NCBI RefSeq assembly: GCF_006345805.1 | Contig: NC_043006.1 | Coordinates: 97,278,001 to 97,342,000 of the forward strand | DNA: 64,000 nt | Source of the DNA: Octopus sinensis | Lineage: Eukaryota | Direction: 5' to 3' | In this document: piece after piece, positions 4,482 through 30,654 of the stretch | How positions within the stretch are numbered: position 1 is the first letter of the stretch | Layout of the letters: every line of letters starts with the position of its first letter | Program-made: the position numbers and the translations under genes | The notes under the pieces: model-generated | Databases searched by the model: none | What the model saw: only the letters and a program-made list of their open reading frames with translations | What the model was told of the DNA's origin: nothing

Positions 4482-5120
4482 ATTAGAATTTGCAGATGTT
4501 TCTGCCTTTGCCCTTACAGTTCTTGCTGGGGTTCTTCTGTCTTTTCTGAACAGTGTTAGTTTTAGTTTTAGTTTTCTTGTCTTTTACCTTGTTTCCCATG
4601 AATTTTAGGGTGCTTTCCTTTTTTTGCGGCCATCTGGTCTTCAGTTGTGTTGGGAGCTGGACACGTGCCATTGTTTCCCTGTTTTCTAGGTTTCTCGGTT
4701 TTATTTTTTGTTGGGTCCTGGATGTTTTCTTCATCCTTTTGGCCTTCCCTGGTGCAGTCACCTCCTAGGATGATGTCCACAGTGTCCATGTGTTGCCTGA
4801 TTAGAGCGTATGAATGGAGAAATTCTCGTTTCTTTCGCTCTATCTGGGCGGTGGTCCTCGAAAAATCATTGCTCTTTAGCACCGCTGCAATAATATTGTT
4901 TGGCGAGTCGCCCTCGGCAATCTTCCAGGCGCGGACGAACAATTGCAACTCCCTCGCAGACCAGTTCCTTGACATTTTTGCCCGAGATACAGTGAGAGTG
5001 AAATATAGGAACAGAGAGAAGGAAAGATAAGATGGTTGACCTGAGAGGGAGAGGAGAAAGGAGAAAAGCTGGTGGCAGATCAGCCAGGGGGGGGGGGGTA
5101 GAGAGAGAGAGAGATGAGGG
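4482..5120 (-). mobile_element. CR1-group LINE 5' end (ORF1 N-terminus), related to the 2950-4481 element
   Basis: ORF 4568-4975 begins MSRNWSARELQLFVRAWKIAEGDSPNNIIAAVLKS, 22/35 identical by eye to the peptide at 3014. Confidence 0.7.
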
Positions 5121-5124
5121 GATT

Positions 5125-8022
5125 GATGTAGCGCTCACGGCGACGTTGGAGAGAATAAAGTTTTAGCTTTTCTAGTCAACCCCAATAGTCGAGGCCTGTC
5201 ATGCCATCTATCTTTTTGGTGATTGCCCTTTGAGGTGCTTCAACTTTTATGATACTTTGTATTGTGTGGGGAGACCACAGTGGACAACAGTATTCAAGGT
5301 GGGGTTGGGCAAAAGTGGAGAAGAGAAGGATAATGGTGTGGATATCTCTCGACTGGAAAGTTCTGAGAATCCAGGAACACATTCTGCGGGCCATGTCAAC
5401 TTTGGTGTTTATATGAGTGGCCCAGCTTATGTTGTTGTCCACAATTACTCCCAAGTCTCTGATGTTGTTGGATGCCTCGAGATTTTCACCTGAAGGAAGG
5501 GAGTATGGGAGTTTCAGGGCATCCTCTTTTCCAAAGTGGATTAACTCAAATTTATCCTCGTTCAGCAGCATATTGTTCTTTTCTGCCCATTGGATAACAG
5601 CCTGTAGATCTGACTGAAGGCATGTCCGGTCACTCGCCTCATTTATGACCTTCTGGAGCTTGGAATCATCTGCAGAGATTTTTATGTTGCTGTGCTTGAT
5701 GATGTCATTAATGTCATTAATGTAGATGATGAAAAGAAGTGAGCCCAGCACAGTGCCTTGCAGAACGCCACTACTGACTTTGGCTGGGCTTGATTTTACT
5801 CCTTCAACTACATGTTGAGATCTGTCTGTCAGGAAACACTTGATCCATTTCAGTAACTTTCCAGCGACACCAATGTTGGATAGTTTTTTCAATAGGATCT
5901 TGTGATCAACCCTGTCGAAGGCCTTGCTGAAATCAAGGTAGATGACATCGGTGTTGGAGCCCTCTCCCAAAGCTCGCAAAATGTCATCAAAGTGATGCAG
6001 GAGCTGCGTTAGGCAGTCCCTTCCATTACGGAACCCATGTTGGTTAGAGATCAGCCATCTGTTGCTTTCCAGAAATTGAGTTATTCGAGATCTCACCACC
6101 CTCTCAAATACCTTGATGATATGAGAGGTGAGTGAGATCGGACGGTAGTTCACTGCAAGGGACTTGTTTCCCTTTTTGAAAACTGGGACAGAAAGTTTTT
6201 AGGAATATAGCCAGCATCCAGTGAGTTTCTCCACAGATTAGCAAGGGGAGATGCAAGTTGGTGTCGACACACCTTCAGGACACAAGCAGGGAACCTATCG
6301 GGGCCTACTGCTGAATTTTGTTTTATTTCGTTTATTGCCACTAGGACATCAGGGGCACCAAACGTTATGTCCGATATAGTGTGTTGGGGGTTGACATCAC
6401 TGATACAGCCCAGATCGGCCATATCAGGATTGCTGAAAACAGAGCAGTATTGTTTCTGGATTTGACATTATCTTGGAGAGTGCCATTTTCATCAATTAGA
6501 GGGCCAACAGTGGAGACAGTGACCCTGTTTCCTTGCAAATGAAAAGAACACTTTGGGGTTGAGTTTGATTTTTTTCAATAGCCCACTTCTCCTCAACTGA
6601 TCTTTGGTTATTGTTGAGGGTTTTCATGCATTGTTGGAGGTTATATTTTTTGGATTCAAGCAGTGCGATAGCCGTGGAATGTGTGTTGCTGCTGTTGGCA
6701 GTATTTTAGTTTGTTAATTTTTTTGTTTGTTCTTTTTATTTTTCTGATAATAGTTTTTCTGTTTTGGGGGATTCTGCACTTTTTGTTCACAGGTCTTTGT
6801 GGGGAGTGTTTTGCACATATGTTTGTGACGGTGTCTACAAAGATCTGCCAAGATGTTTTATGGTTGGTGGAGATGTGTGTATGTGTAAAGGACCAGTCAA
6901 CATGTGATAGCTTGTTCCTGATTGCATCCCAGTTGGCATTATGGAGATCCATGTTATCAAATGGGTGGGCTGGAGAGAGGTCACTAGGATTAGCTTTCGG
7001 CTGGTGGAATTTCATGTTACAGAGAACTATGTCATGGTCTGAAAGAAGGGTTTTTTCTACTGTAATGTTATGTATAGTGTTAGTGTGGTTACTAAACACT
7101 CAGTCCAAAATGTTCTTCTGATATCTTGTTGGTGCAAGGACAAGTTGGGACAAAAAAAAACTCATTCATAAAGTCGAAAAGTGACTCTGCTGCTTCTTTG
7201 TCAGCGGTTGAGGCGGGAGTGCTTGGTTTCAAACAGTTTGTAGTCCAGTCAACACAGGGTAGATTAAAGTCTCCCATCATGAGTAGGTTGCTAGAATGGC
7301 ACTGTTGAATAAAGCACTTAATGCTGTTGAGGCATTCTTTGGCCTTGGCCGGTAGTGCATCTAGTGCCAGGTAGATGTGTGAAGATGCAGTCACTACCTG
7401 TGCAGAGCCTCTGAATAATGGCATATTTTGGGGTTTCTTGTTTGTGCCGTGGGGGGCGCATTCTGCTTCATATGTTTTTTTAGGTTTTTGTTACTGCAGT
7501 AGTATTGAGGTGGCGATGTGGGGGAAGAGAGCTGTGGTTTCTTATTTGGTTTTTTATTAGTAGTATTTTTGGTGATAGAAGATGATGGTGGCAGCGGTGG
7601 TGATGATGATGATGATAATTGTGGTGGTTGCTGTGAGAGCTGTGAATAGATACTGGCATTCAGTAAATCATCTAGTATGCTAGAGTTTAGGAGTGGCTGT
7701 TGTTCTTGTTGTTGTTAGGCTTGAACAGTGAAAATATAAAGAAGTTTTTCAAAATGGCTTTTAGTTAGTTTGAAAGAGACTTTGATATGCTTCAGTTTGC
7801 TACGAATTTGTTTGACGGATCGTGTGTTGACTATTTGCGATGTTTTTACGGCAATCTCATTCAAACATAAAGCATTTCAATTTTCTGTTTGGGAAAGTGA
7901 GAACCAAGTGTTAATTAAGACATCAATTTCATAATCAGACCAATTTCGTCTGTTGCAGGCCTGCAGGTTAGTCGTCATGTTTGTTTTTCTTTTGATTTTA
8001 GATATATATATATATATATATA
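5125..8022 (-). mobile_element. CR1-group LINE, decayed (ORF1 start, APE, RT), with internal deletions
   Basis: RT ORF 5176-6153: NYRPISLTS, QHGFR, YLDFSKAFDRVDH, SGVLQGTVLG, SADDSKL, LEYCCPLWSP. APE MGDFNLP and LSDHD at 6656-7424. Myb-like ORF1 start at ~7978. Confidence 0.9.
7734..8022. repeat. ~290-bp direct repeat, copy 1
   Basis: Near-identical to 9084-9372 (offset 1350), with 2 substitutions seen outside the (TA)n tract. Confidence 0.95.
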
Positions 8023-10324: not shown

Positions 10325-12930
10325 ATTTTCTCATTGAAGACGATGAATGAGGGTTCAGTAAATAACCTTCAACAATTCCTAAGCTTGTGACACCGCATGT
10401 GTACCTTCAATCCAGCAGATGTCTTGCACACTTTCTTGCAAATGGTACACCTGCATGTATTCGTTGGTTCAAAATGTCTTCTCGAGTGGACAGCTAACCC
10501 AGCTTTGCTTCGTGCTTTAAACCCACAGTGACACACACAATCAATGTTTGGTAGATTTTGCTGATGCGTTGCTTTCAAATTTGCACGAAGGGCCTCCCTA
10601 TGATGAAGGCGGTTACTTTCAAATTCTCTAGTCTTTAGAAAACACATTCCTCCATTTGCTGCGATCCCCTGCTGCACTCTCCCAGGAGCTCAGAGCAATG
10701 TCACAACGCTTCAGATTATCTTTTAGTTTGTCCTTGTAACGAAGAAGAGGACGCCCTGTTGGACGGAAGAATTTGTCAATTGCCCGTAAAAAAGCTGCTT
10801 TGGAACTCTTGAGTCATCCATTCTTACGAGATGACCAGACCACCGCATTTGTATCATCTTAATCAAAAATGTTTCAATACCAGTGATCTCACACCTCTCC
10901 AGCAACTCACTATTTCGAACACGATCTTGCCATTTAACATTGCAAATAGAATGCAGACATCTCATATGGAAGGAATCAAGCTGATTGATATGCTTGCAAT
11001 ACAAGGTCCACGTTTTGGCACCATACAGAAGAGTAGATAGAACAACAGATTTGTAGACTGCTACTTTTACTTTCAGAGACACATCGTGGCTGTTCCAGAG
11101 TCTGTGTCGCAACCTACCAAATGCTTCACTTGCTTTACTGATTCTGTTTTGGATATCTTTTTCAAATTTTGCATCATCAGACACAATAGAGTATGTAAAA
11201 GAAGATGCTGTTTTCAAAGCTTTACCATCAACATATACCACTTGTTGTGAAGAGGGCAAAGAGTTTGGTTTCAGCTGGTGAATAAGTTCAGTTTTCGTTA
11301 TGCTAATTGTAAGACCAAAGGCCTTACATGCATCAGAGAAGCTATTGAGGATGTTCTGCATGTCCTCAAGACTATGGGTGACAAGAGCACAGTCATCAGC
11401 AAAAAGGAGATCAAGAACAGTCTGCACAAAAGTCCGGGTTTTGGCTTTGAACCGCTGCTGGTTAAATAACCCTCTGCTTGATCGATACTCAACACCTACA
11501 CCTTCCGAGGTGTCTTTGAAGGCTGTTTCAAGCATCACTGAAAAGAAAAGAGCAAATAAGATCGGAGCAAGGACACATCATTGCTTGGTTCCATTTGACT
11601 CTTCAAATGGTTCACTTTGTTCGCAGTCAGACCGTACTGATGCCATCATTCCATAATGAAAGGAGACAATCACATTAACATGTTGTCTAGAACACCAAGC
11701 TTCCTCAAAACAGTCCACAGGGCATCCCTGGAGACGGTATCAAATGCCTTAGTGAGATCAACAAAGGTAACAAACAAGTCCTTATTCTGTTCCCTTGCTT
11801 TCTATTGTAGTTGCCCTAAGCTGAAGATCATATCCACAGTGCCTCTTCCAGACCGGAAACCACATTGGGTTTCTGGGAGCACAGTTTTACAAATTGAATC
11901 ATTGAGTCTGTTTAAGATTACACACGCTAGAATCTTACCAGCAACAGATGAGAGAGAAATTCCTCTATCGTTATCACACTCACATTTATTTCCTTTGTGC
12001 TTAAATAGGTGAATAATTGAAGCATCTTTTAACTGTTGTGGCACAGTACCAAGTTCCTATATTGAAGAAAACAGAGCACTTAGTTTCCTGATTAGCATTT
12101 GGCTTCCACATTTGTATATTTCTGCAGGTATCCCATCATCACATGGAGCCTTACCATTTGACAATTGCTTTATAGCCTTTTCAACCTCCGACATGGGTGG
12201 ACTGTCAGCAAGATTCTCGATGGTTGGCTTCTGAGGAAGATTATCAATCACTTCCTGATCCACTGTCGATTCTCTGTTTAAAACATTTGAAAAATGTTCA
12301 GCCCAGCACTTAGTAATCTCTTTCTTATCGGTAAGGAGAGTGCCATCTGACAAAAATATTGGAGATGCCCTCTTTGAGATGGGACCAAAGACACCTTTGA
12401 GATTTTGGTAGAAAGATTTAAAATGGCACTTATCCGCTGCATCTTGTAAGGCCTGGGCTTTCAATTTCCACCAGTTTTATTTCATTTCCCAGAGCCGAGA
12501 TTGTGCCAACTGAGGAATTTTTGTCAGTAATCCACACATGATGCATGTTTCTGAGCAAAGGGAGGATGGTTGGATCATTTTCATCAAACCAATCTTGGTT
12601 CTTCCTTCTAATGACTCTTTGGCAGAGTCATACACTGCAGTTTTAAACTCTGACCAAGATGCCTCAATGTCATTCCCACATATAATGGAGGACAGCTTTT
12701 CATCAGCAACCGTTTGAAACAACTGCAAGATCTCCTTAACCTTCAACTTGTCCACATCAATTTCCTTGATGGGAGAACTACGTTGATTTCGAACAAGGCG
12801 TTTGGTTTTCATCTTGATTGTGGAGCAGATCAATTTGTGATCTAACCAACATTTCCCTATACTGTAAGAGCATGTAAGACTTACATCTTGTCGATCAGAA
12901 CGACGTACAATGACATAGTCAATGAGATGT
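10325..12930 (-). mobile_element. RTE-clade LINE, 5'-truncated, decayed RT with two C-terminal C2H2 fingers
   Basis: WAEHF, NGKAPCDDGIPAE, QCGFRSGRGTVDM, LLFADDCAL, LLYGAKTW, MRWSGH; C-terminus CHCGFKARSKAGLAVHSRRH and CTICKKVCKTSAGLKVHMRCH. Confidence 0.9.
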
Positions 12931-15647
12931 TAAACAGGGCAGGGTTTGTTGAAGAAAAGAAATTGTGTCGCAGTGTACACGTATGCTCTGATCCTAAATT
13001 GGGCAGGGGACGTATGGCCCGTGGTCCCAACTCGGATGAACCTTGAAGCTAATGTTCAGGTCATTTGGGCAAAGTTGGCGATATATTCTCCACATCGTAC
13101 AAATGATGTACCGCTTACGGCGACGCTGGGGAAAGTAGAATTTCAAGGCTTTAAGGTGGTCCCAATAATCGAGAGCAGCCATGCCTTCAATTCGTTTAGT
13201 GAGTGCCCTCTGGGGTGATTCAGTTTTCGAGATGTTTTGTTTTGTATGGGGAGACCACAAGGGGCAGCAGTATTCGAGGTGTGGCTGTACAAAGGAGGAG
13301 AAAAGTGGAATGATGACACCTTGTTCTCTGGACCGGAAGGTTCTTAAGAACCAGGAGCTCATCTTACGAGCTATATCGACCTTATTGTTGATATGGGCAC
13401 TCCAACTGGGATTGTTATCTGCAATTACACCCAGGTCTCTAATATTATTAGATTTTGTGAGCAGTTGCCCTGAAGGAAGAGAGTATGGCTGTTTTAGTAT
13501 AGACTTTCTTCCAAAATGCATCTGCTCAAATTTTCCCGCGTTCATATAGACCTCACTGGAGTTGAATTTGGTCTTCTTCTTCATTAATGATTTGCTGGAG
13601 CTTAGTGTCATCAGCAAATATTTTTACTTTGCAGTGATTTACAACACTGAAAAGGTCATTTATGTAAATTATAAAGAGGAGTGAGCCCAAGACAGTCCCC
13701 TGAGGGACACCGCTGGTGACTTTTGCTGGGCCTGAGTGGACTTCATCGACCACAACATGTGTTCTATTCGCCAGAAAAATATTTAATCCAGTGTAGAAGT
13801 TTTCCATGGATTCCAACATTTGCCTAGTTTGAGAGTAGGATATTATGGTCAACCCTGTTGCATGCTTTACTGAAGTCAAGATATATGACATCAGAGTTCG
13901 AACCTGTTCCCAAGGCCTTAAGTGTATCTTCAATGTGGTGTAAGAGCTGTGTTAGACAGTCCCTGCCACAGCGAAAGCCATGCTGATCTGCATTTAGGAG
14001 TTTGTGGGTCTCCAGGAAGTCAGCTATCCTTGATCTTACCACGCTTTCAAACACTTTAATGATGTGGTAGGTGAGTGAGATTGGGCGATAGTTGACTGCG
14101 AGGGATCTGTTTCTCTGTTTGAAAACTGGGATGACAGACTGGGATAGGAGCTGTTTCGGTATATAACCGGTGTCTAAAGAATTTCTCCAGAGGTTGGTCA
14201 GAGGGACTGCAAGTAGATGTCTACATTCCTTCAGGAGACTAGCGGGGAATCTATCAGGGCCTACAGCAGAGTAGTATTTGACCTTATTTATTGTTGCTAC
14301 GATGCCAGAGGCAGTGAAGGTTATGTCTGAGATTTTATGTTGGGAATCAACTTCGTTCGCTTCTCTTACGTCAATATCAGTGGGATCACTAAAGACAGAG
14401 CAGTATTATTTCTGCCATTTCTTTAGCATCGTGTTGGAGAATGCTGTTATCATCGATCAATGGCCCAGTGGGTGAGATAGTGGTTCTATGTTTATTTGCA
14501 TAATAATAGAACACTTCTGTTTGATGATTTTGATTACTCACTGTTCCTCCGCAGCTCATTGATTTTCAATGGAAGTTTTCATGTCGGTCTGCAGATGAAG
14601 TTTTTCCAACTCCAGCCTTTTCATTGTTGTTGTATGTGGGAATATTTTAATTAGTTGATTTTTTTATTGAGTCTTTTGATGCGCCTGATGAGTGTTTTTT
14701 TTCTCTTTAGGGAGCCGGTTTATGTTAGTGGATTTCGTAGGAGCTTGTTTAGAGCATGTATAGGTGACAATGTTCTCAAAGTGCTGCCATGCGGTCTCAA
14801 TTTGGGTGGAACTGAGAGTGAAAGACCAGTCAATGAAAGACAGATCCTTTCTGATTGCTGCCCAGTTCGCTTTGTGAAAGTTTGTTGTCAAATGAGTGCC
14901 ATGGATGGGATTGGGTGGTTTGATTTTGATTTGCTGGGAATTAAAATTGCAGAGTATCATGTCGTGGTCTGAGAGGAGAGTTTTTTTCAACTGAAATACT
15001 GTGAATGGAGCTAGAATGGTTGGTTGATATTAGATCCAAGATCGTTTTCTTCTGTCTTGTTGGTTCGAGCACTAGCTGAGTCAGGAAGAATTTATTCATT
15101 AGATTAAAGAGTAATTCTGGTGCTGCTTTATCTGATGTAGAGCATTTGCCTAACTTCAGAGTATTTGTGGGCCAGTTTATATGAGGGAGGTTAAAATCAC
15201 CCATCATTTGTATGTTTCTGGAGTTGTATTTTTGAAGGAAGGACTTGATTTTGTTGAGGCACTCGTCAAAGCACTTCAGAGGTGCTTGGGGAGGCCTGTA
15301 AAGACCGACAATGATTATGTCTTTAGATTCACAAAAGCCATTGGAAAATAGGTCCTTGGCATTGACTGAAAAGGAGTGATGGAGAAAGATGGCTGTCCCT
15401 CCTTTAATTGGATGCTGGTGAAGTCTTTTATTTTCACTTCGGCATCCATATGTGTGCTGTTTAGGTGAGTTTCTGTAAGAATAAAGAAAGGGAAGCAATG
15501 TGCCGTTTCAGCAAGCTGACTCTCTCTCTATGGGAATCTTCCATTTTTGGGCAATGATTGATGGGTTGATGCCACGTACATTTAACAGGAATGTCGAGGT
15601 AAGGGAAGTTGGTAATGGGTGAGTGGTCCTTGTGATTTGCATAGATG

Positions 15648-15714
15648 GTTGGTGATAGCTCGCTGGATCTCCTGGCTTAGGTCGGCCTTCATATTTTCCA
15701 GGTATGTCAGTAAA
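15648..15714. repeat. 67-bp direct duplication flanking the viral insert (left copy)
   Basis: 66/67 identical to 17326-17392 (C15699 vs T17377). Confidence 0.95.
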
Positions 15715-17325
15715 TTTTTTTTTTTACATTTTTATTTAATATTACAGATTACAAATTATATAATTGAAAATGAAAAATGAAAAAGAATTACAGTTCTGTA
15801 TCTGATAGTTCACTATCAGATTCGTAGTTTGGTTTCTACGTCAGTTTTCTGAACTTTCTTTTTCTTTCTGGGAGTTGTTCTTCTTCGTCTGTTTCGGAGA
15901 ACACTCTAACGGTTGACCCGCTTCCACTATTAGACAGAGTCCGAAATCCACTTGGTCTTCTGTTTTCTTTGTCGGCGTCTCTGTTTGTGGGTTTTTCGTA
16001 CTCTTCTAGAATGTGACATAAATTGTCATCTGATGAGGAACCATCGTCAGTAATTAGAGAAGAAAAACAATGTTCATAAAATAAAACATTCCATATAATA
16101 GGATTAATCTTTTTCTTTACATATTGAAGGAAGGGAGAAGATTTATTGAATAGATACTCTGGGTATCTTGTTATGAAAGCATGTCTTTCGTGTAAAGGCG
16201 CGTTGCTGTCGAATTTGTTTGATGTAATTATCAATGGTGTTCTGTGAACAATTTGGTCTGGTTTAAATTTGACAGACACTTCAGTGTCAATCCCTTCAGC
16301 AAGCTTCTTGAAAGTCTGAAGGGTTTCTAAAGTGAAATTCGGTTCTTCGATTAAACCTATTTCTACATTAAGCAAATTTTGGAATGGGAAACTACTTGTC
16401 CCCTGGATCGTGCTGACGTGAGTGAACAGCTCAGCAATACTTCGAGCAACCATTGATTTGCCAGTATTTGGCAAACCCCTTAACACAAGGAGATTACATT
16501 TTGGTAGTTTCTTGTTCAATAAATACCAAACGTTGTTAACGAAGGTACTTTCGTCAATTTCCTGTGTCATTAAGATGGAGTGGAATATTTTCAGAGAAAC
16601 CTCTTTTGTTAGATAGTGACGAGTATCGTTCTCGAAGTAACTCCAGTTCATATCTTCAAATTTTTTAATGAATGGTGTTATTAATATTTTTAATTTCACG
16701 CACTCCAGAACTTTTTTCATAACTGCATCATACATAGGGTGACTAATCGCCCTCATGAAATTGTCATTGTTACCTGTTAACTCTGTTCAGCCAGTGAGAT
16801 TTCATTTCTTGTTCGTTACGAAATCTCTTACTAGTGAAAATGTAAGTAAGGTAATTGAATAAAGTTAGTCGTTCCAATTCTACTTTTGAAGGATGGCTCG
16901 TCGTTGACGACTTGCTTCGATGTAGTTGCGATCTCAGTTTGTGTAGGTTTTGGTATATATTCACATTGACACCATTCAGTAAATGTTTTATTTATGTCGT
17001 CTGTGCCTGCAATTAATACTTTTCTCGGTTCTTGGCAGAAATAGTTTGCCATGCTACTAGGAAATTTTACTCTTTGGCACTCAGGTATGAATCGATCTAA
17101 ATTGGTAGCTTTCTTATATAAGCTTTGTATGTATTTCAGGCGCTGATTCTCGCCAGGTCTGATGATTGAATTCCATATAATATGGAAATGGTTGAATGTG
17201 TTCCATTCTTTTCTAGAACACGATTGAACCTCATTAGGATGGTAAATTACTGTACATTCATTGAAGTGTATGAATTCTATTATTTTCGAATTAGAATTCA
17301 ACTGGTATTCGTTTTTTCGCTGACC
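15715..17325 (-). pseudogene. NS1: Endogenous parvovirus/densovirus-like NS1 (HUH endonuclease and SF3 helicase), polyadenylated, two frameshifts
   Basis: HUH motif NHFHIIW and candidate catalytic Tyr in NYFCQ (~17040-17190). In ORF 15836-16756: Walker A GLPNTGKS, Walker B LIEEP, B' FKKLAEG...VKFK, motif C PLIITSN. Frameshifts near 16900 and 16785. AATAAA (plus strand TTTATT 15731-15736) and A11 (T-run 15715-15725). Confidence 0.9.
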
Positions 17326-18117
17326 GTTGGTGATAGCTCGCTGGATCTCCTGGCTTAGGTCGGCCTTCATATTTTCTAGGTATGTCAGTAAAAAAGAGTT
17401 ACTTGTTTGGTTTGTCACTTGGTCAGAGGATACATATTTCATGTTGGCGTTATTTGGTGTTTTTTCATGGTTCTGTCTACGTTGTTTGATTGTAGGAGGG
17501 GAAACGTGGTTGTATTTTGTTCTTGTTGTTGTCCTAGATTTCCTCTGTTCCTGTTTATATTTATTCTGTGATCGTTTTGTGCCCTTCAGATGGTGGTGGT
17601 TGCATTCTGGGTTCAGGCACATCCTTAGTGACACAGAAGTTTGGCACAGTTTAGGATGGAAGAAGGTGCTTCCCTTGCCTTTTGTGCATCCATATTTAGG
17701 ATCGGGGCCATGGACTCTGTATTTAGGACAGTATTTGGGGTGGAGGTGAGCGCAGTTTTTTTCTGTTATACCATATGGACAGGTGCCCTTAACAAGTCTA
17801 TGGCATAAGGTAGGATGGAAAAAAGCACAGCATCCCGTGTTGTTGGTGCTGCTGGGGCCAAATCTACAGTTGCCTTGAGACTGGTAATGACAGGATTTTT
17901 GACATGGGCACAGTAGACGTTTTTCTATACTGTTGGGCTCAGTGGTCAGTGGTCCTATTGTAGTATCAGTAGCAGACTGTTTTTGTTGCTGTAGTGGCAG
18001 TGAATCTTGACCTGCAATAGTAGGGCTGGGTGGAATCAGGTCAGATAGTGGTGCCAAACAAGGTGCTTCCAATGCAGTAGCTGGTTGTTGTTGTGGTAGT
18101 GAGTCCTGGCTTGCCAT
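16831..18117 (-). CDS. Open 428-aa chimeric frame: LINE ORF1 CCCH region (aa 1-264) fused to the NS1 HUH domain
   Basis: From the ORF track; the junction at 17326/17325 falls on a codon boundary (...RAITN|GQRKNEY...). Expression is unknown. Confidence 0.4.
   Translation of the reverse strand: MASQDSLPQQQPATALEAPCLAPLSDLIPPSPTIAGQDSLPLQQQKQSATDTTIGPLTTEPNSIEKRLLCPCQKSCHYQSQGNCRFGPSSTNNTGCCAFFHPTLCHRLVKGTCPYGITEKNCAHLHPKYCPKYRVHGPDPKYGCTKGKGSTFFHPKLCQTSVSLRMCLNPECNHHHLKGTKRSQNKYKQEQRKSRTTTRTKYNHVSPPTIKQRRQNHEKTPNNANMKYVSSDQVTNQTSNSFLLTYLENMKADLSQEIQRAITNGQRKNEYQLNSNSKIIEFIHFNECTVIYHPNEVQSCSRKEWNTFNHFHIIWNSIIRPGENQRLKYIQSLYKKATNLDRFIPECQRVKFPSSMANYFCQEPRKVLIAGTDDINKTFTEWCQCEYIPKPTQTEIATTSKQVVNDEPSFKSRIGTTNFIQLPYLHFH
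17326..17392. repeat. 67-bp direct duplication flanking the viral insert (right copy)
   Basis: Matches 15648-15714. Confidence 0.95.
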
Positions 18118-18407
18118 AGCAGTTTGGGTGGAATCAGGTCAGATAGGGTTATGTTTGTTGCTGGCTAGTTGAATTGACCCCTGACCTGTTGTACTTGGGT
18201 TAGTTGGTGCACTACATCCATTGACAAGTATAGCTTCTATATTGAAACATTTTACTTGCTGGATGTAAAGAAACAATGGAGTGGACAGGAAGAATTGAAG
18301 GTCAAGGAGCATATTTTACTTATTTTTGTGCAATCACAAATGAAATTTAGTAAAATAAAACTTTTTTATATCATCAGGAATTCTTTACGATGCATCCTGT
18401 AAATCAG

Positions 18408-19796
18408 TCATGGTCTCGCCCTACACGGTTTCCCCGCTAACCCAAACGTTACACCAGCCTCGTTAACGGTGACACCTCCCAAGCGGGTGATTGCATCCAT
18501 CCCCATCACCACGTCAATCTCGTCCACCAAGTGACCAACCACAATCGCTTGCAATGTCAGCTGTAGTCCCTGCACTACAATCTGCGCATCTGTAACCCCT
18601 TTGCAGTGTACTTCTCTTCCCTTGACAGCCCTAACACTGCTTCCTCCACTCCCCGTCTCTGTCACTTCTGTAGTCATCAGGGTCGTTGTACAGCCCGTGT
18701 CCACAAGGGCTCACGACATCTTCCCCTCCACCAGAATGTCAACCACAGGTAGCGATGATAAACGCGCCTCTACTGATCCAAAGGGACAACTACCAGCGCA
18801 GTAGTCTCCCGCAGACACTCGCTGGCTATATGCCCCGGCTCTCGACACCGGTGGCAAATCACCTCAGGCTTGGGTGACATGCAGTCACACACCATGTGTG
18901 GACCTTGGCACCAGAAACACTGTCCTTTGAACGGTCGCACATGTTCTTTCTTTAGCCCCTCTCCGCTGTTCCTAGCTGGACCACTTTTCGACGTTGCAGT
19001 CGCTGCTACCAAGTCATCCTGCTGCACGAGACTAGTACACGTGCCCGAGATATGATGTCCGCCATCGGCATCGAATTCACATTCGGAAGCTTCTGTAGCT
19101 CGACCGACATGTTGTCGGGAAAGCCAGTCACGAACGTCAACCTAACCGTCCGGTCCAGCGACTCTCCCTCGTAACCCCCCAGTTTAGCCAGTCTTCTAAG
19201 TTCATTGGCAAACACGTCCATCTCGTTCTACCCAGGCGAGCGTATGTCTCGAACATTCCCTCCGCAAAGGCCTCCATCAACCGGACTTCCACTTTCTCCG
19301 TGTTAAGTTGGTCTGTCTCTTCCATCTCTAGATACAACGCCAAAGCTGGACCATCCAAGTACAGCGGCATGAAGCTCGCCAGGTCACCTATACCATGGAG
19401 CTTCGCCTCCAACTTCACTTTCTTCAGCCAAGCGACTACACCTGTGTCGCCGCTAAACGGTGTTATAAGTTCGTGTGAAACACGGGCACTCTTCATCATT
19501 TTTATTTATAAAACCGATTGTTTATATGCCGAAATAGCTTGTGGTGTGAACGATGAAAGAGGACAACAGAAAAAAGGAGAATGGAAATACAATTAGGCCT
19601 TACCTCGGCGAAGATTAGTCTACCGAAACTCAGCGAAGTTCAGATCTCTCTCAGCCAGCTCGATATGTCTTGTGCCTTCCTCGTCTCAGCTGCAACTGCT
19701 GCTTGGTCAATGCCACACGTGCGTCGTCCCTCGCCGCTTCCACTTCCTACCGTGCATGCACCCTGCAAGCCCTACTTCCTCTCCACCGACACCACA
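18408..19796 (-). mobile_element. Ty3/Gypsy retrotransposon 5' part: LTR, gag, protease; truncated
   Basis: gag PFSGDTGVVAWLKKVKL...PLYLDGPALALY and DVFANELRRLA; knuckle CHRCREPGHIASEC; protease ALVDTGCTTTL; frameshifted. Confidence 0.85.
19540..19796 (-). repeat. Putative 5' LTR (257 bp)
   Basis: TG...CA ends with an 8-bp terminal inverted repeat TGTGGTGT/ACACCACA, 40 bp upstream of the gag ATG (19499). Confidence 0.7.
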
Positions 19797-20544: not shown

Positions 20545-21655
20545 TTGGGATGGCAACCAAGTTTCCACCGTTTATTTTTAATATAAATTTTTAAAAAAGT
20601 TAAATAAAAAAAATAATAACTAAGTAACAATAATGTAATCACCCTTGTTGTTTACAATTTCTTCCCAATGTTCAACTAGATTTTCAATACCTTGTTGGTA
20701 GAAATCACCCGATTTCGACTCAAAAAATTGATCCAACCAATCTCTCAATTCTGCATCAGTATTGAACGAAACTCCGCGCATATCCTAGAAAAAGATCGAA
20801 AGAGGTGGAAATCCGTTGGTGCCAAATCATGGCTTCCTTGGTCATATTGGCAATATGAGGGCAGGCGTTGTCGTGCAGCAATTGATTCATAATGGATAAT
20901 TCCTTCCCAGCCCCACCATACGCACAACATCGTTTCACGCAGATGAAGATCTTGTTTCACGTGCAGTGTTTCTTGTTTACCGGTTTCTAAGCCATTCCTT
21001 ACGCTGCTTCATATTGATGTACAGGCACCATTTTTCCTCGCCAGTAACGATTCAGTAAAGAAAGCGTTGCTTGTGTCCATGAGTTGAGCGGTGACGAGCA
21101 AGCAAACCAACGGAGATTGTGGCTCATTGATTTTTGTTGTTATCATTTAAAGCATATGGATCCCATGCTCCATACTTCTGAACCTTTCCTATCAAGTGAA
21201 GATGCTTCTCTATAGCACTGTGGGAGCATTCCATTTTCTCTACCATTTCCCACATTGTTTGACGAGAATTTTCATCCAAAAGTTGGTTTAATTGCTCTTC
21301 ATTGAACTCAACTGGACGGCCAGAACGAGGTGCGTCTTTGAGGTCAAAATTTCCATTTTTGAACTTGGCATACCAATCATGAGCGGTTCTTTCAGCTATG
21401 GCACCCTCTCCATGCACAGCACAAATGTCGCAAGCAACTTTTGTGGCCTTAGAACCTTGATTAAAAGCAAAAAGGAGGCGGTGTCAAATATGCTCGTTCT
21501 TCTTAACTTGACATTCCATGTTAATGATCTGAAAATAAACAAAAATTAGGTAGAAAAAAAAAACAAAATAGATTCCAAAATGATTCAGAAATAATTCTTG
21601 AAAAAAATAGATTCCAAAATTTTAAAAAACGGTAGGAACTTAGTTGCCAACCTAA
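20545..21655 (-). mobile_element. mariner transposon, both TIRs present, decayed transposase
   Basis: ~29-bp imperfect TIRs (TTGGGATGGCAACCAAGTTTCCACCGTTT / TTAGGTTGGCAACTAAGTTCCTACCGTTT), TA on both sides; PRSGRP, MLCVWWGWEG, LHDNACPH, DLAPTDFHLF. Confidence 0.92.
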
Positions 21656-28307: not shown

Positions 28308-30654
28308 CAGTGTTTCCCAACCTTTTTTCCCGGCGCCCCACTTTTTCATAGCAAAAGTTTTTACGCCCCACCTTTTCCCATGTCCACTCACATTTACAAG
28401 TACATGTGGGCCTACTTACAATTGAAAAAAAATCAAAAATTAAAAAATTGTATTCAAAATACAAAAAAATAGTTTGAGAATTGAAACAACAGGCACTGAA
28501 AGTGCATAACACCCAATAAATCGATAAAATTATTACGATTTCTCATGTTTTTAAAAAATGTCAATTTATAAAGAATAAAGAAACACGTTTTTTCAGTTCA
28601 ATTATTTGACGGTCAGCTCGACTAATTTAGTGAGAACCCTGTGCCTGATGCATACAGCACAAGTTTTTAATTTGAGGAGACAACTTTGTTAATTTCAGTC
28701 GTAAATCGCCACGTTTTGTAATCTCAAGCCGGTTTCTCTTGGCTTCGAGCAAATTATCAACTGCACTAAAACCACATTCGACCAAATAAGACGAAGGGAA
28801 AGGAATCAGTAGCTCTCTTGCTGATGTAGAAATTTTAGGATATTTTCTTTCAACCTCGTCATATAGCCACATCTTTGTACCTTTCAATTTAAACAAAGTC
28901 TTCACTGATTCATCATGTTGTAATTCTGATAACTCTTCTTGGTATTGGATTGTAGCATCAGAAACGTTAATCAGAAGCGGTTGAGTTAACCAAGAACGAA
29001 AATTCATTGCCTTTAAATCGCAAAATCTGTCATTGAAATCCTTTATCAAGATATTTAAATGATCAATAATTACAATGCCAGCATCATTCGTTATTTCACA
29101 TTTACTCAACCAGTAAAGTTCACTGAAATTTCTTTTGGAAAATTTCTTTTCCATAATTCGAGAGCTGTAATAAATCCAAAAATCTTTGCTTTTGCATCAA
29201 TAAGTGTCATGTTTGCACCTTGAAGTTGTTTATTCAAGTTTCCAAGTTTCTCAAATATGTCTGTCAAATAACTGACAAATGCTTTTCCATCCGTTGTTGA
29301 CAGCAATTTCATTTCACATTTATCACTAAGAAAGTCGTTAATCTGATCAAATAATTCCATGAACCTCTTTAAGCAGTTTCCACTTGATAGCCATCTTACT
29401 TCTGTATGAAGCAATAATCGAACATGTTCGGCACTTTGATTTATACAAAACTGCTTAAAAAGACGTTCAGATTTAGAATTTCTTTTAATGCTGTTGACAC
29501 ACTTGATCACACTTTGAAGAATCTTGTTAAGAACAGGGGACAATTTCTTGGCAACCAAGTTTTCTCGGTGTATTACACAATGGACAGTCAACATGTTTGG
29601 ATTTTCATCCTTCATCATTTTTAAGCATCCCGTATTCTTGCCCATCATGGCAGGTGCACCGTCTGCCGCACATGCCAGTAAGTTTTCCTTTGGTATTTTG
29701 TTTGCATCCAAATAATGTTTGATTTTGATGTAAATATCATTTGCAGTTGTGGTGGTTTCAAACGATTCGCAGAACAGCATCTCTTCCTGAAACTCCTCGT
29801 GGTCAATATACCTCACATAAGTCAATAACAGAGCCTCACTGTCCTGGATTGTGGATTCATCCATTTGTAATGAAAACTTACGCAATTTTAATTTCTCAAT
29901 GAGCTGGCTTTCAACATTTTGCCCCATTTCATCTATTCTGTTCGAGACAGTGTTATTACTGAGTGGCATAGTCCTGATATCTCCATCATCTTTTTGTAAT
30001 ACAGTTTTTAAGAATATTGAGATAGCAGGTTTAATCAGTTGCTCTCCAATAGTGTGATTCTTTCCATGTTTTGCTATAAGCAAGGAGATTTCGTAGCTGG
30101 CTTCAAGGGCACGAGTATGAGGTGCTTGTTTTGCATGAAATAGTGAAGTGAGTTTTGTTCAGTTTTTAAATTTTTCTTTCAATGATTTGAAGTATTCCAA
30201 ATCTAAATTAGAATTATTAGGATGTCTTACCTTTAAGTGCGCTTCCAGCCTACCTGCCTTCATTGACTCATTGCTCATCGTCTGATTACATAATAAGCAA
30301 AACGGTTTACGCTCATCATGCTCATCAGGAATGAATCCAAACTTCAAAAACTCCACCGCGTATTGACGAGTCTTCTTCTTGTTTGGTTTGCTCATTTTCA
30401 ATAGGGCTAACAAAAGATATTAAAATTGAAAGGTACAGTATTGAAAGTCTCGGGAGATGACACAAATCCAAGAAAGCGGGATCTTCTTTGTCTCGCTGGG
30501 GTGCGAGAGTGTCCGATGTGGAGGCTTCAAAGGAAAGACGGAATCTAAGGTTGTGCCCGCGATGACCGCTCGTCATGTACAAATATTTTCACAGCCCACG
30601 TCTATGCCCCGCGCCCCACCTGAATTTTCTCAGGCCCCACCTTGGGAATCACTG
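28308..30654 (-). mobile_element. Full-length Buster/Charlie-type hAT transposon (2347 bp)
   Basis: TIRs CAGTGTTTCCCAA / CAGTGATTCCCAA; perfect TSD CTCTAGAG with central TA (28300-28307, 30655-30662). Confidence 0.95.
28627..30395 (-). pseudogene. Buster-type transposase (~590 codons), one nonsense codon and one frameshift
   Basis: BED finger CLLC...HLKVRH; MDEST, ADGAPAM, CVIH, RWLS, ECGFS. The TGA at 30159-30161 is in frame with ORF 29106-30083; frameshift near 29150. Confidence 0.92.

Follow-up and report, generated by a model that had tools for sequence, protein, structure and literature searches.

A parvovirus-like gene fragment lies inside an old copy of a long interspersed nuclear element (LINE) in Octopus sinensis, within a stretch of 64,000 nucleotides (nt) of contig NC_043006.1 (assembly GCF_006345805.1, positions 97,278,001 to 97,342,000), which was analysed as a whole and is called the window here. 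The fragment does not abut the old copy directly: on each side it is bordered by a short patch of a younger LINE subfamily, and the locus reads as a mosaic of old subfamily B, young subfamily A, virus, A and B. We hold, with moderate confidence, that a LINE reverse transcriptase (RT) joined young-LINE and viral templates and that the product patched the old B copy in one multi-template event. The fuller scenario is more tentative, and we would put its chances somewhat below even: the transcript of a DNA virus may have been joined on both sides to reverse transcripts of two different, active CR1-type LINE molecules, and the product placed by homology in the old copy, a LINE-guided targeted conversion. 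The donor would be a parvovirus lineage, hitherto undescribed, that occurs in octopuses and other marine invertebrates and in which the capsid gene precedes the nonstructural gene NS1.

LINE copies and sister viral copies were sought in one genome assembly, G000 (C-numbers below are its contigs and L-numbers the loci fetched from it). There, the LINE family that hosts the insert comprises two subfamilies, a young one, A, whose copies are ~1.6-4% apart depending on the segment, and an older one, B, whose copies are 5-7% apart. Outside the insert and its borders, the window LINE carries the B allele at 65 of 68 diagnostic sites (52/54 in 14200-15556 and 13/14 in 17627-17870), and inside it carries the A allele at all 24 (6/6 in 15557-15714 and 18/18 in 17326-17626). 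Read along the locus, the sites give 52 B and 2 A, then 6 A and 0 B, the virus, 18 A and 0 B, and finally 13 B and 1 A. The same partition was found in trees of the four segments, in which the two patches fall among A copies and the distal flanks among B copies (split support 0.989-1.0). Moreover, private changes are frequent in the B flanks (80 in 1601 nt, ~5%) as against 2 differences in the 459 nt of the A patches (0.4%; Poisson P 3e-8), and the patch coincides exactly with the loss of a spacer of ~95 nt between the two open reading frames (ORFs), which 22 of 26 B copies but 0 of 37 A copies possess. The window holds 21 consecutive A-type sites; as a control, the maximum among the 26 B copies was 9, in two copies with scattered A alleles, and at most 4 in the others.

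All parts of the locus lie on the minus strand, virus and LINE being co-oriented. The 5' part of the old B copy, the target, spans 17627-18239 in ORF1 (11 private changes in the 244 nt of 17627-17870, B split support 0.998), matches to other copies starting at 18239. It is followed by the right A patch, also in ORF1 (17326-17626, 1 private change in 301 nt), with the switch from B to A between 17570 and 17626. Beyond the virus, the left A patch without the B-type spacer (15557-15714) gives way to B again between 15557 and ~15605, and the 3' part of the old copy (12930-15556, with 69 private changes in the 1357 nt of 14200-15556) contains the APE and RT domains of ORF2 in pieces (Pfam Exo_endo_phos_2 and RVT_1), its 3' end being cut near an RTE-like LINE. 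The target is 7-8% apart from B copies and 12% from A copies, yet both donors came from A; the left patch is identical to one A copy (L015) across 158 nt.

A mosaic master element was considered as the source of this pattern and rejected, since among the 40 best-scoring candidates per distal flank long matches were at most 87% and 86% identical, and none was of the form B-A-B. Scattered A-type alleles were also noted at L067 and L070 (C15, 66.8-66.9 Mb) and at L053, L055, L060, L064 and L068, which probably represent a subfamily intermediate between B and A.

The insert (15715-17325, 1611 nt) is flanked by a direct repeat of 67 nt with one mismatch (15648-15714 and 17326-17392), and the coordinates and motifs listed for both in the first-pass annotation of this DNA were recovered. 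That annotation proposed two origins for the repeat, an RTE-type long target-site duplication (TSD) or a template switch, and the second fits far better. A TSD would repeat the target's own B sequence, while both 67-mers carry A alleles; thus, the 67-mer is not a TSD. The LINE natively holds a single 67-mer, as had been presumed, in 18 of 18 copies checked, and a native duplication (0/18) was accordingly rejected.

RTE-1 makes long duplications, and the window contains RTE-like LINEs, elements reported to be active in octopus (PMC9115989, PMC13282606). It nevertheless seems very improbable to us that a LINE such as an RTE element retroposed a viral mRNA in trans into a place already converted to A and made a 67-bp duplication there: the conversion would have had to come first and to be centred on the site of the later insertion, a comparable tract occurs in none of the 26 B copies, the sole mismatch falls on a lineage-defining site, and the site offers no T-rich primer, since on the LINE sense strand the junction falls within a T6 run and the primer strand ends in A. 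The host family does not appear to make long duplications of its own either. Among 20 copies, a rough search with rough boundaries gave TSDs of at most 18 nt outside microsatellites, and no flanking repeat of at least 25 nt was found at the element ends when low-complexity sequence was masked. Its members encode a cysteine/histidine-rich ORF1 and an ORF2 with APE and RT domains (Pfam), and several of the 20 copies end in tandem ATCTAAGTTT repeats, not in poly(A). We take ORF1 with an APE-RT ORF2, a 3' tandem-repeat tail and the lack of a long TSD to be CR1 traits, and the LINE is thus called CR1-type rather than RTE-type, a provisional label drawn from motifs and traits. Recently active CR1 families have been described in O. 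vulgaris (PMC13282606).

The sole mismatch between the two 67-mers (15699 versus 17377) is itself a lineage marker between existing LINE sub-lineages. The left copy has the haplotype A/C at two lineage-defining columns, which was found in 4 of the 21 C-allele copies examined, and the right copy has A/T, found in 16/16 T-allele copies; the right patch, moreover, follows the AT sub-lineage at 8/8 sites informative for AT against AC. Exact 40-mers taken from the left copy (with the C allele) and from the last 40 nt of the right copy occur at 51 and 22 loci of G000, respectively, each count including this locus. By rough estimate, a later mutation would mimic an existing haplotype ~2% of the time. 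On this estimate, two different LINE-A templates are likelier than a single template followed by a back-mutation. The first-pass annotation read the mismatch as a clock, which does not hold because the two 67-mers match two existing A haplotypes. Across the assembly, subfamily A splits into AT and AC at ~40 sites, AC being the more numerous by exact 40-mer count.

The viral identity of the insert was upheld: it encodes HUH motifs (HFHIIW and NYFCQ, sharing one frame) and SF3 helicase motifs (GLPNTGKS, LIEEP and PLIITSN, in another), and the helicase frame matches Pfam Parvo_NS1 (E 2.6e-14). The HUH endonuclease part (16834-17325) is 66% identical over 150 amino acids (aa) to residues 39-187 of an intact relative, P0002 (547 aa). 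As the insert starts near codon 39 of P0002, ~40 codons are gone from the 5' end of NS1. The helicase part (15836-16786) differs at 4 of 271 aa from its best database match, 'nonstructural [Octopus vulgaris]'. The NS1 reading frame is interrupted twice, by a frame change that lies between ~16790 and ~16870 and by a stop close to the C-terminal end, a defect that the annotation did not mention. Contigs assembled from three sequencing runs (X2, X6 and X7) continue uninterrupted across the frame change; the break is therefore shared and old. The HUH part happens to be in frame with the LINE ORF1, giving a fused open frame of 435 aa (16831-18138) that terminates at the frame change; the chance of an in-frame junction is one in three.

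Searches of G000 with the whole insert and with its 5' part separately each returned one locus, and no viral capsid gene is present in the window. The insert is thus a dead, single-locus endogenous parvovirus-like element, cut at its 5' end and broken in frame. With one locus, a broken NS1 and an ORF2 in pieces (at least five frames and many deletions), a mobilised LINE-virus chimera was rejected; neither a LINE carrying a viral Rep-helicase nor several loci with identical junctions, both raised by the annotation, survived this comparison. The single locus also bears on a two-step history, in which the virus would have entered an A copy elsewhere and a 2.1-kb tract (A, virus, A) would then have moved to the B copy by ectopic gene conversion, the donor being lost or unassembled. 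The same mosaic would result, and homologous flanks on both sides suit conversion. This history nevertheless calls for two rare events and a donor of which G000 shows no trace, and it leaves the two haplotypes of the 67-mer unexplained; we consider it improbable.

The viral sequence ends with AATAAA (15731-15736), a 5-nt spacer and a run of eleven A (15715-15725), with no palindrome after it. This end was compared with that of sister copies in G000, where 24 matches to the helicase on 8 contigs and 18 matches to a capsid-like ORF were found. Three of them (L071 on C27, L074 on C12 and L076 on C5) show AATAAA, a spacer of 4-8 nt and a run of 9-14 A, and then continue into a homologous palindrome, a candidate viral terminus (L071:7255-7324, L074:4022-4091 and L076:3786-3855). 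The closest sister, L071, is 87% identical to the insert and has the same 5-nt spacer and a run of 13 A. The A-run therefore appears to be part of the viral DNA itself, and the poly(A) that had been taken as proof of an mRNA loses that value. All three sister copies with a recognisable right end continue into the palindrome, while the window insert stops in the A-run. The palindrome measures 45-55 nt in these three copies on three contigs and was not seen elsewhere in 728 kb of fetched sequence, although its folding is only ~2 standard deviations below shuffles; no left-end hairpin was recognised.

The window insert and L071 differ by 46 synonymous and 18 non-synonymous codons in 226, as expected of separate integrations from a replicating virus. 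A descent of L071 from a mobilised chimera was rejected on this synonymous excess, and 0 of 15 tested sister-copy regions matched the window LINE family.

The insert is shared across individuals. Wholly or partly, it is contained in 20 of the 24 runs listed (9 studies), and at least half of its words occur in 12 runs (6 studies under 3 organism labels, one of them possibly the window's own source); k-mers of the junctions were seen again in 4 studies. At the 5' junction, contigs from 3 of 4 examined runs extend 30 letters into LINE sequence, and at the A-run junction those from 2 of 4 go on for 30 letters. None of the four runs has another letter at the A-diagnostic sites 17330, 17341 and 15705 or at site 15699; independent-run contigs thus carry A alleles beside both junctions. 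The private old-B flank is likewise present in other runs, in an X6 contig (17807-17950, 0 differences) and in an X2 contig (15425-15504, 2 differences). The concern that the junctions are misassembled is met by these contigs in substance, while none bridges formally: they fall 1 letter below the 31-letter rule, a stop that is probably to be expected of 31-mer contigs entering a high-copy repeat. Nor does any contig of the four runs phase an A patch with a distal B flank, a link that rests on the assembly. Both facts would suit an assembly or polishing artefact, the virus really lying in a young A copy to which old-B flanks were wrongly joined or collapsed. We regard this as highly unlikely, since two mis-joins would have to agree with each other, both falling at collinear positions within the same old copy, and the private B flank and the junction k-mers recur in independent data as described above.

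Side observations were made in run X7. One contig skips 208 nt of the LINE ORF1 (window 17467-17676; depth 7.4; 28 letters on the short side) and may derive from another LINE copy. The run, guessed to be RNA, covers the insert and upstream LINE with no cover of 15200-15567. Among the runs that contain the insert, none is recorded as RNA; neither observation was used as evidence.

The event that we favour, synthesis by a LINE RT on several templates, could have proceeded as follows. The old subfamily-B copy, CR1-type as labelled above, would have been broken or nicked near its ORF1/ORF2 boundary. The free end may have paired with RNA of subfamily A, then active, and been extended by the LINE RT over ~110-160 nt. 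Synthesis would next have moved to the A-run at the 3' end of an NS1 template, of which 1.6 kb would have been copied. A second subfamily-A template would then have supplied ~250-300 nt to close the product, overrunning by 67 nt; the closing step might be a switch back or an extension of the other broken end. Finally, the chimeric strand would have replaced the matching stretch of the old copy. That the donors were expressed RNA is suggested by the choice of A although B copies are closer to the target (7-8% against 12%). The viral template was, on balance, probably mRNA rather than viral single-stranded DNA (ssDNA), as suggested by the stop within the A-run where 3/3 sisters go on, by the co-orientation with the LINE and by the young-subfamily donors. 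Insertions of two RNAs in the same orientation have been reported for L1 (PMC11702581).

Beside the missing phasing and formal bridging in the sequencing runs, several points weigh against this sequence of steps. The LINE strand at the switch ends in AAA and cannot pair with the A-run, so that a non-templated or fold-back addition of T must be assumed; template jumping by the R2 RT in vitro does need non-templated addition, but the same paper doubts a physiological role for jumping and points to RNA ligation for L1 chimeras (PMC8857657). The A-run cannot show an mRNA template, since it is templated in the sisters at the same AATAAA spacing. The A and B samples (37 and 26 copies) were picked by similarity search and are not a census. 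Lastly, repair at the DNA level predicts the same mosaic.

Such repair, with no RT involved, would have started from a double-strand break in the old LINE and proceeded by synthesis-dependent annealing, with a genomic A copy as the template of each end and viral ssDNA captured or copied in between. It accounts equally well for the mosaic, the two A haplotypes and an arbitrary overlap of 67 nt, and the A-run is genomic in the virus. Tremblay et al. (2000) are said to have described break repair of a LINE from other LINE copies. Parvoviral elements are, moreover, generally held to derive from genomic DNA, and adeno-associated virus (AAV) integrates by end joining (PMC3205384). We nevertheless consider DNA-level repair rather unlikely here: both ends took the more distant young subfamily and not the closer B copies, the viral piece stops at the A-run without the palindrome of the sister right ends, and the shared orientation of virus and LINE becomes a one-in-two coincidence.

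At a rate of 0.0036 substitutions per site per million years (Myr) (PMC13282606), the host LINE copy is ~14 Myr old (11-17) and the patch 0.6-1.2 Myr (upper bound 4.4). Alleles of the insert differ from that of the window by as few as 2 substitutions (X2) and as many as 10 (X4), and small indels are also present in X4 and X7; the split between the window and X4 alleles dates to ~0.9 Myr ago (0.4-1.6). An event ~1-3 Myr ago fits these values, and the O. vulgaris complex has been dated within 2.5 Myr (PMC13093632, PMC10700109). A very recent event does not agree with an insert common to runs under three organism labels and with alleles up to 0.6% apart.

We then considered the virus lineage. In a helicase tree that kept 82 of 168 cores (distant ones being thinned) and was built without named reference viruses, the insert falls in a clade (support 0.996) of proteins from eukaryote assemblies and from Logan, a tube-worm protein and an O. 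bimaculoides protein. Fold comparison of P0002 gave parvoviral nonstructural proteins for all named hits among the top 50 in BFVD (2 rows had no name), at 14-27% identity in structural alignments, and AAV Rep as the best match in the PDB, the HUH part of the model being of low confidence. For comparison, the parvovirus genus criterion is ~35-40% NS1 identity over most of the length.

In some sister copies, a capsid-like ORF lies 5' of NS1 on the same strand, the distance from its end to the start of NS1 being 50 nt in L072 and 63 nt in L075, and L074 keeps the same capsid-then-NS1 order across a deletion. The capsid-like ORF and NS1 regions are found at L075:5753-7318 and 4826-5680 (C12 near 57.54 Mb), L072:3401-5446 (C16) and L074:4262-5503 (C12). 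The L075 capsid-like ORF encodes 522 aa with a PLA2 domain (PF08398, E 7e-13); its residues 133-518 are 31% identical to a protein annotated with PF16530, and its top Atlas clusters are parvoviral VP1 at 0.92-0.93, while its single-sequence fold model (pLDDT 30) is unusable. Since the capsid-like ORF is upstream in L072 and L075 and the palindrome follows NS1 in other copies, the virus seems to be arranged as capsid, NS1, terminus, opposite to the NS-then-VP order that is usual in parvoviruses, with no single copy showing the whole layout. These copies point to repeated infection of octopuses by the lineage. No free virus was confirmed in viral contigs or metagenome contigs, blanks that do not show absence.

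Further relatives were noted. L147:3540-9726 (C4049) holds three tandem capsid-like copies, with no NS1 match in 15 kb of that contig. Many intact-looking NS1 relatives (P0010-P0027) occur in ENA assemblies with long contigs, several per contig, for example three on a contig of 835,705 nt, and a capsid-like and an NS1-like protein each lie on a contig of 98,977 nt. A second, distant SF3-helicase lineage forms a separate clade (L077:6091-6762 on C14, L081:4378-4944 on C19 and L082:4428-5045 on C29; Parvo_NS1 E 1.3e-13) and by eye resembles a Sepia officinalis sequence in the PMC5013282 supplement.

The viral lineage is not wholly new, since a fragment from O. bimaculoides was listed in 2016 (KOF81493/A0A0L8GWZ8, our P0003; Francois et al. 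2016, PMC5013282). It belongs to the same lineage, is 87% identical to the helicase part and is a close tree neighbour, and its supplement row has a 'Yes' after the contig size, in what we read as the adjacent-transposable-element column. It differs in being a 246-aa helicase fragment only, and the accessible parts of that source give no junction anatomy, capsid gene, gene order or mechanism for it. A PLA2-bearing ORF upstream of NS1 is also known from the Swazi bat-associated megaparvovirus lineage (PMC13426907), which has a large genome and a separate PLA2-less VP1 after NS1, whereas in the octopus copies most of the upstream ORF is itself capsid-like, and AATAAA, the A-run and the palindrome come after NS1.

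The insert also resembles EBLN and other viral retrocopies made by L1 in its A-run end, 5' truncation, direct repeat and attribution to a LINE RT; those have a short target duplication and an added tail (PMC3205384), while in the octopus insert young LINE templates supplied the repeat, the A-run appears to be templated, and a DNA virus and a CR1-type LINE lacking a poly(A) tail are involved. Thus, among the features of EBLN-like retrocopies, the octopus insert shows 5' truncation and has neither a target-duplicating repeat nor a T-rich primer at an endonuclease site. The LCMV-IAP recombinant cDNA is likewise a chimera of retrotransposon and virus formed by a retrotransposon RT, but it involves a long terminal repeat (LTR) element, an RNA virus and somatic cells, with no endogenous example according to PMC3205384; the octopus locus is a germ-line fossil of a non-LTR element and a DNA virus. 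Non-canonical L1 insertions of two RNAs, made by template switch or RNA ligation, are co-oriented multi-template products as well (PMC11702581, PMC8857657); these L1 cases concern cell culture and cellular RNAs, whereas the octopus product has three segments, a viral middle and both ends inside one old copy.

The open-access literature, covered mostly at listing level, gave no report of the locus, of parvoviral elements patched with LINE sequence or of a capsid-before-NS1 order. Among supplements of endogenous-virus surveys only that of PMC5013282 was covered for octopus copies, and those of other surveys could list more. In their accessible parts, neither octopus nor mollusc is mentioned in PMC10433990, neither CR1 nor virus in PMC9115989, no virus in PMC13282606 and no retrotransposition in PMC9707805.

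The locus records an unusual, repair-like entry of virus sequence into the germ line, and it is a reminder that neither an A-run nor a flanking repeat is a safe guide to origin. Capture of DNA at breaks is the usual interpretation of endogenous parvoviral elements, and long repeats around inserts are commonly taken for TSDs. A third route, the joint copying of young LINE templates and viral sequence into an old copy, can be recognised from LINE subfamily alleles, and the subfamily-allele test is cheap and applicable to any insert inside a repeat. The joining of a young LINE by homology to an older chromosomal copy has reportedly been seen by Gilbert et al. (2005), in chimeric L1 formed with endogenous copies. 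The sister copies, moreover, supply markers for a search for the free virus in a farmed, much-studied animal.

Other mobile elements surround the locus. Beside the 5' end of the host LINE, protease-like and gag-like frames (window 18408-19600) are probably the remnant of an LTR retrotransposon, a label assigned by motif. Further transposon remnants lie at 260-1982, 5176-6198, 10723-12929, 21124-21483 and 28627-30158; these we take to be RTE-like LINEs, a second CR1-type RT, and mariner-like and hAT-like transposases, all labels except RVT_1 being assigned by motif.

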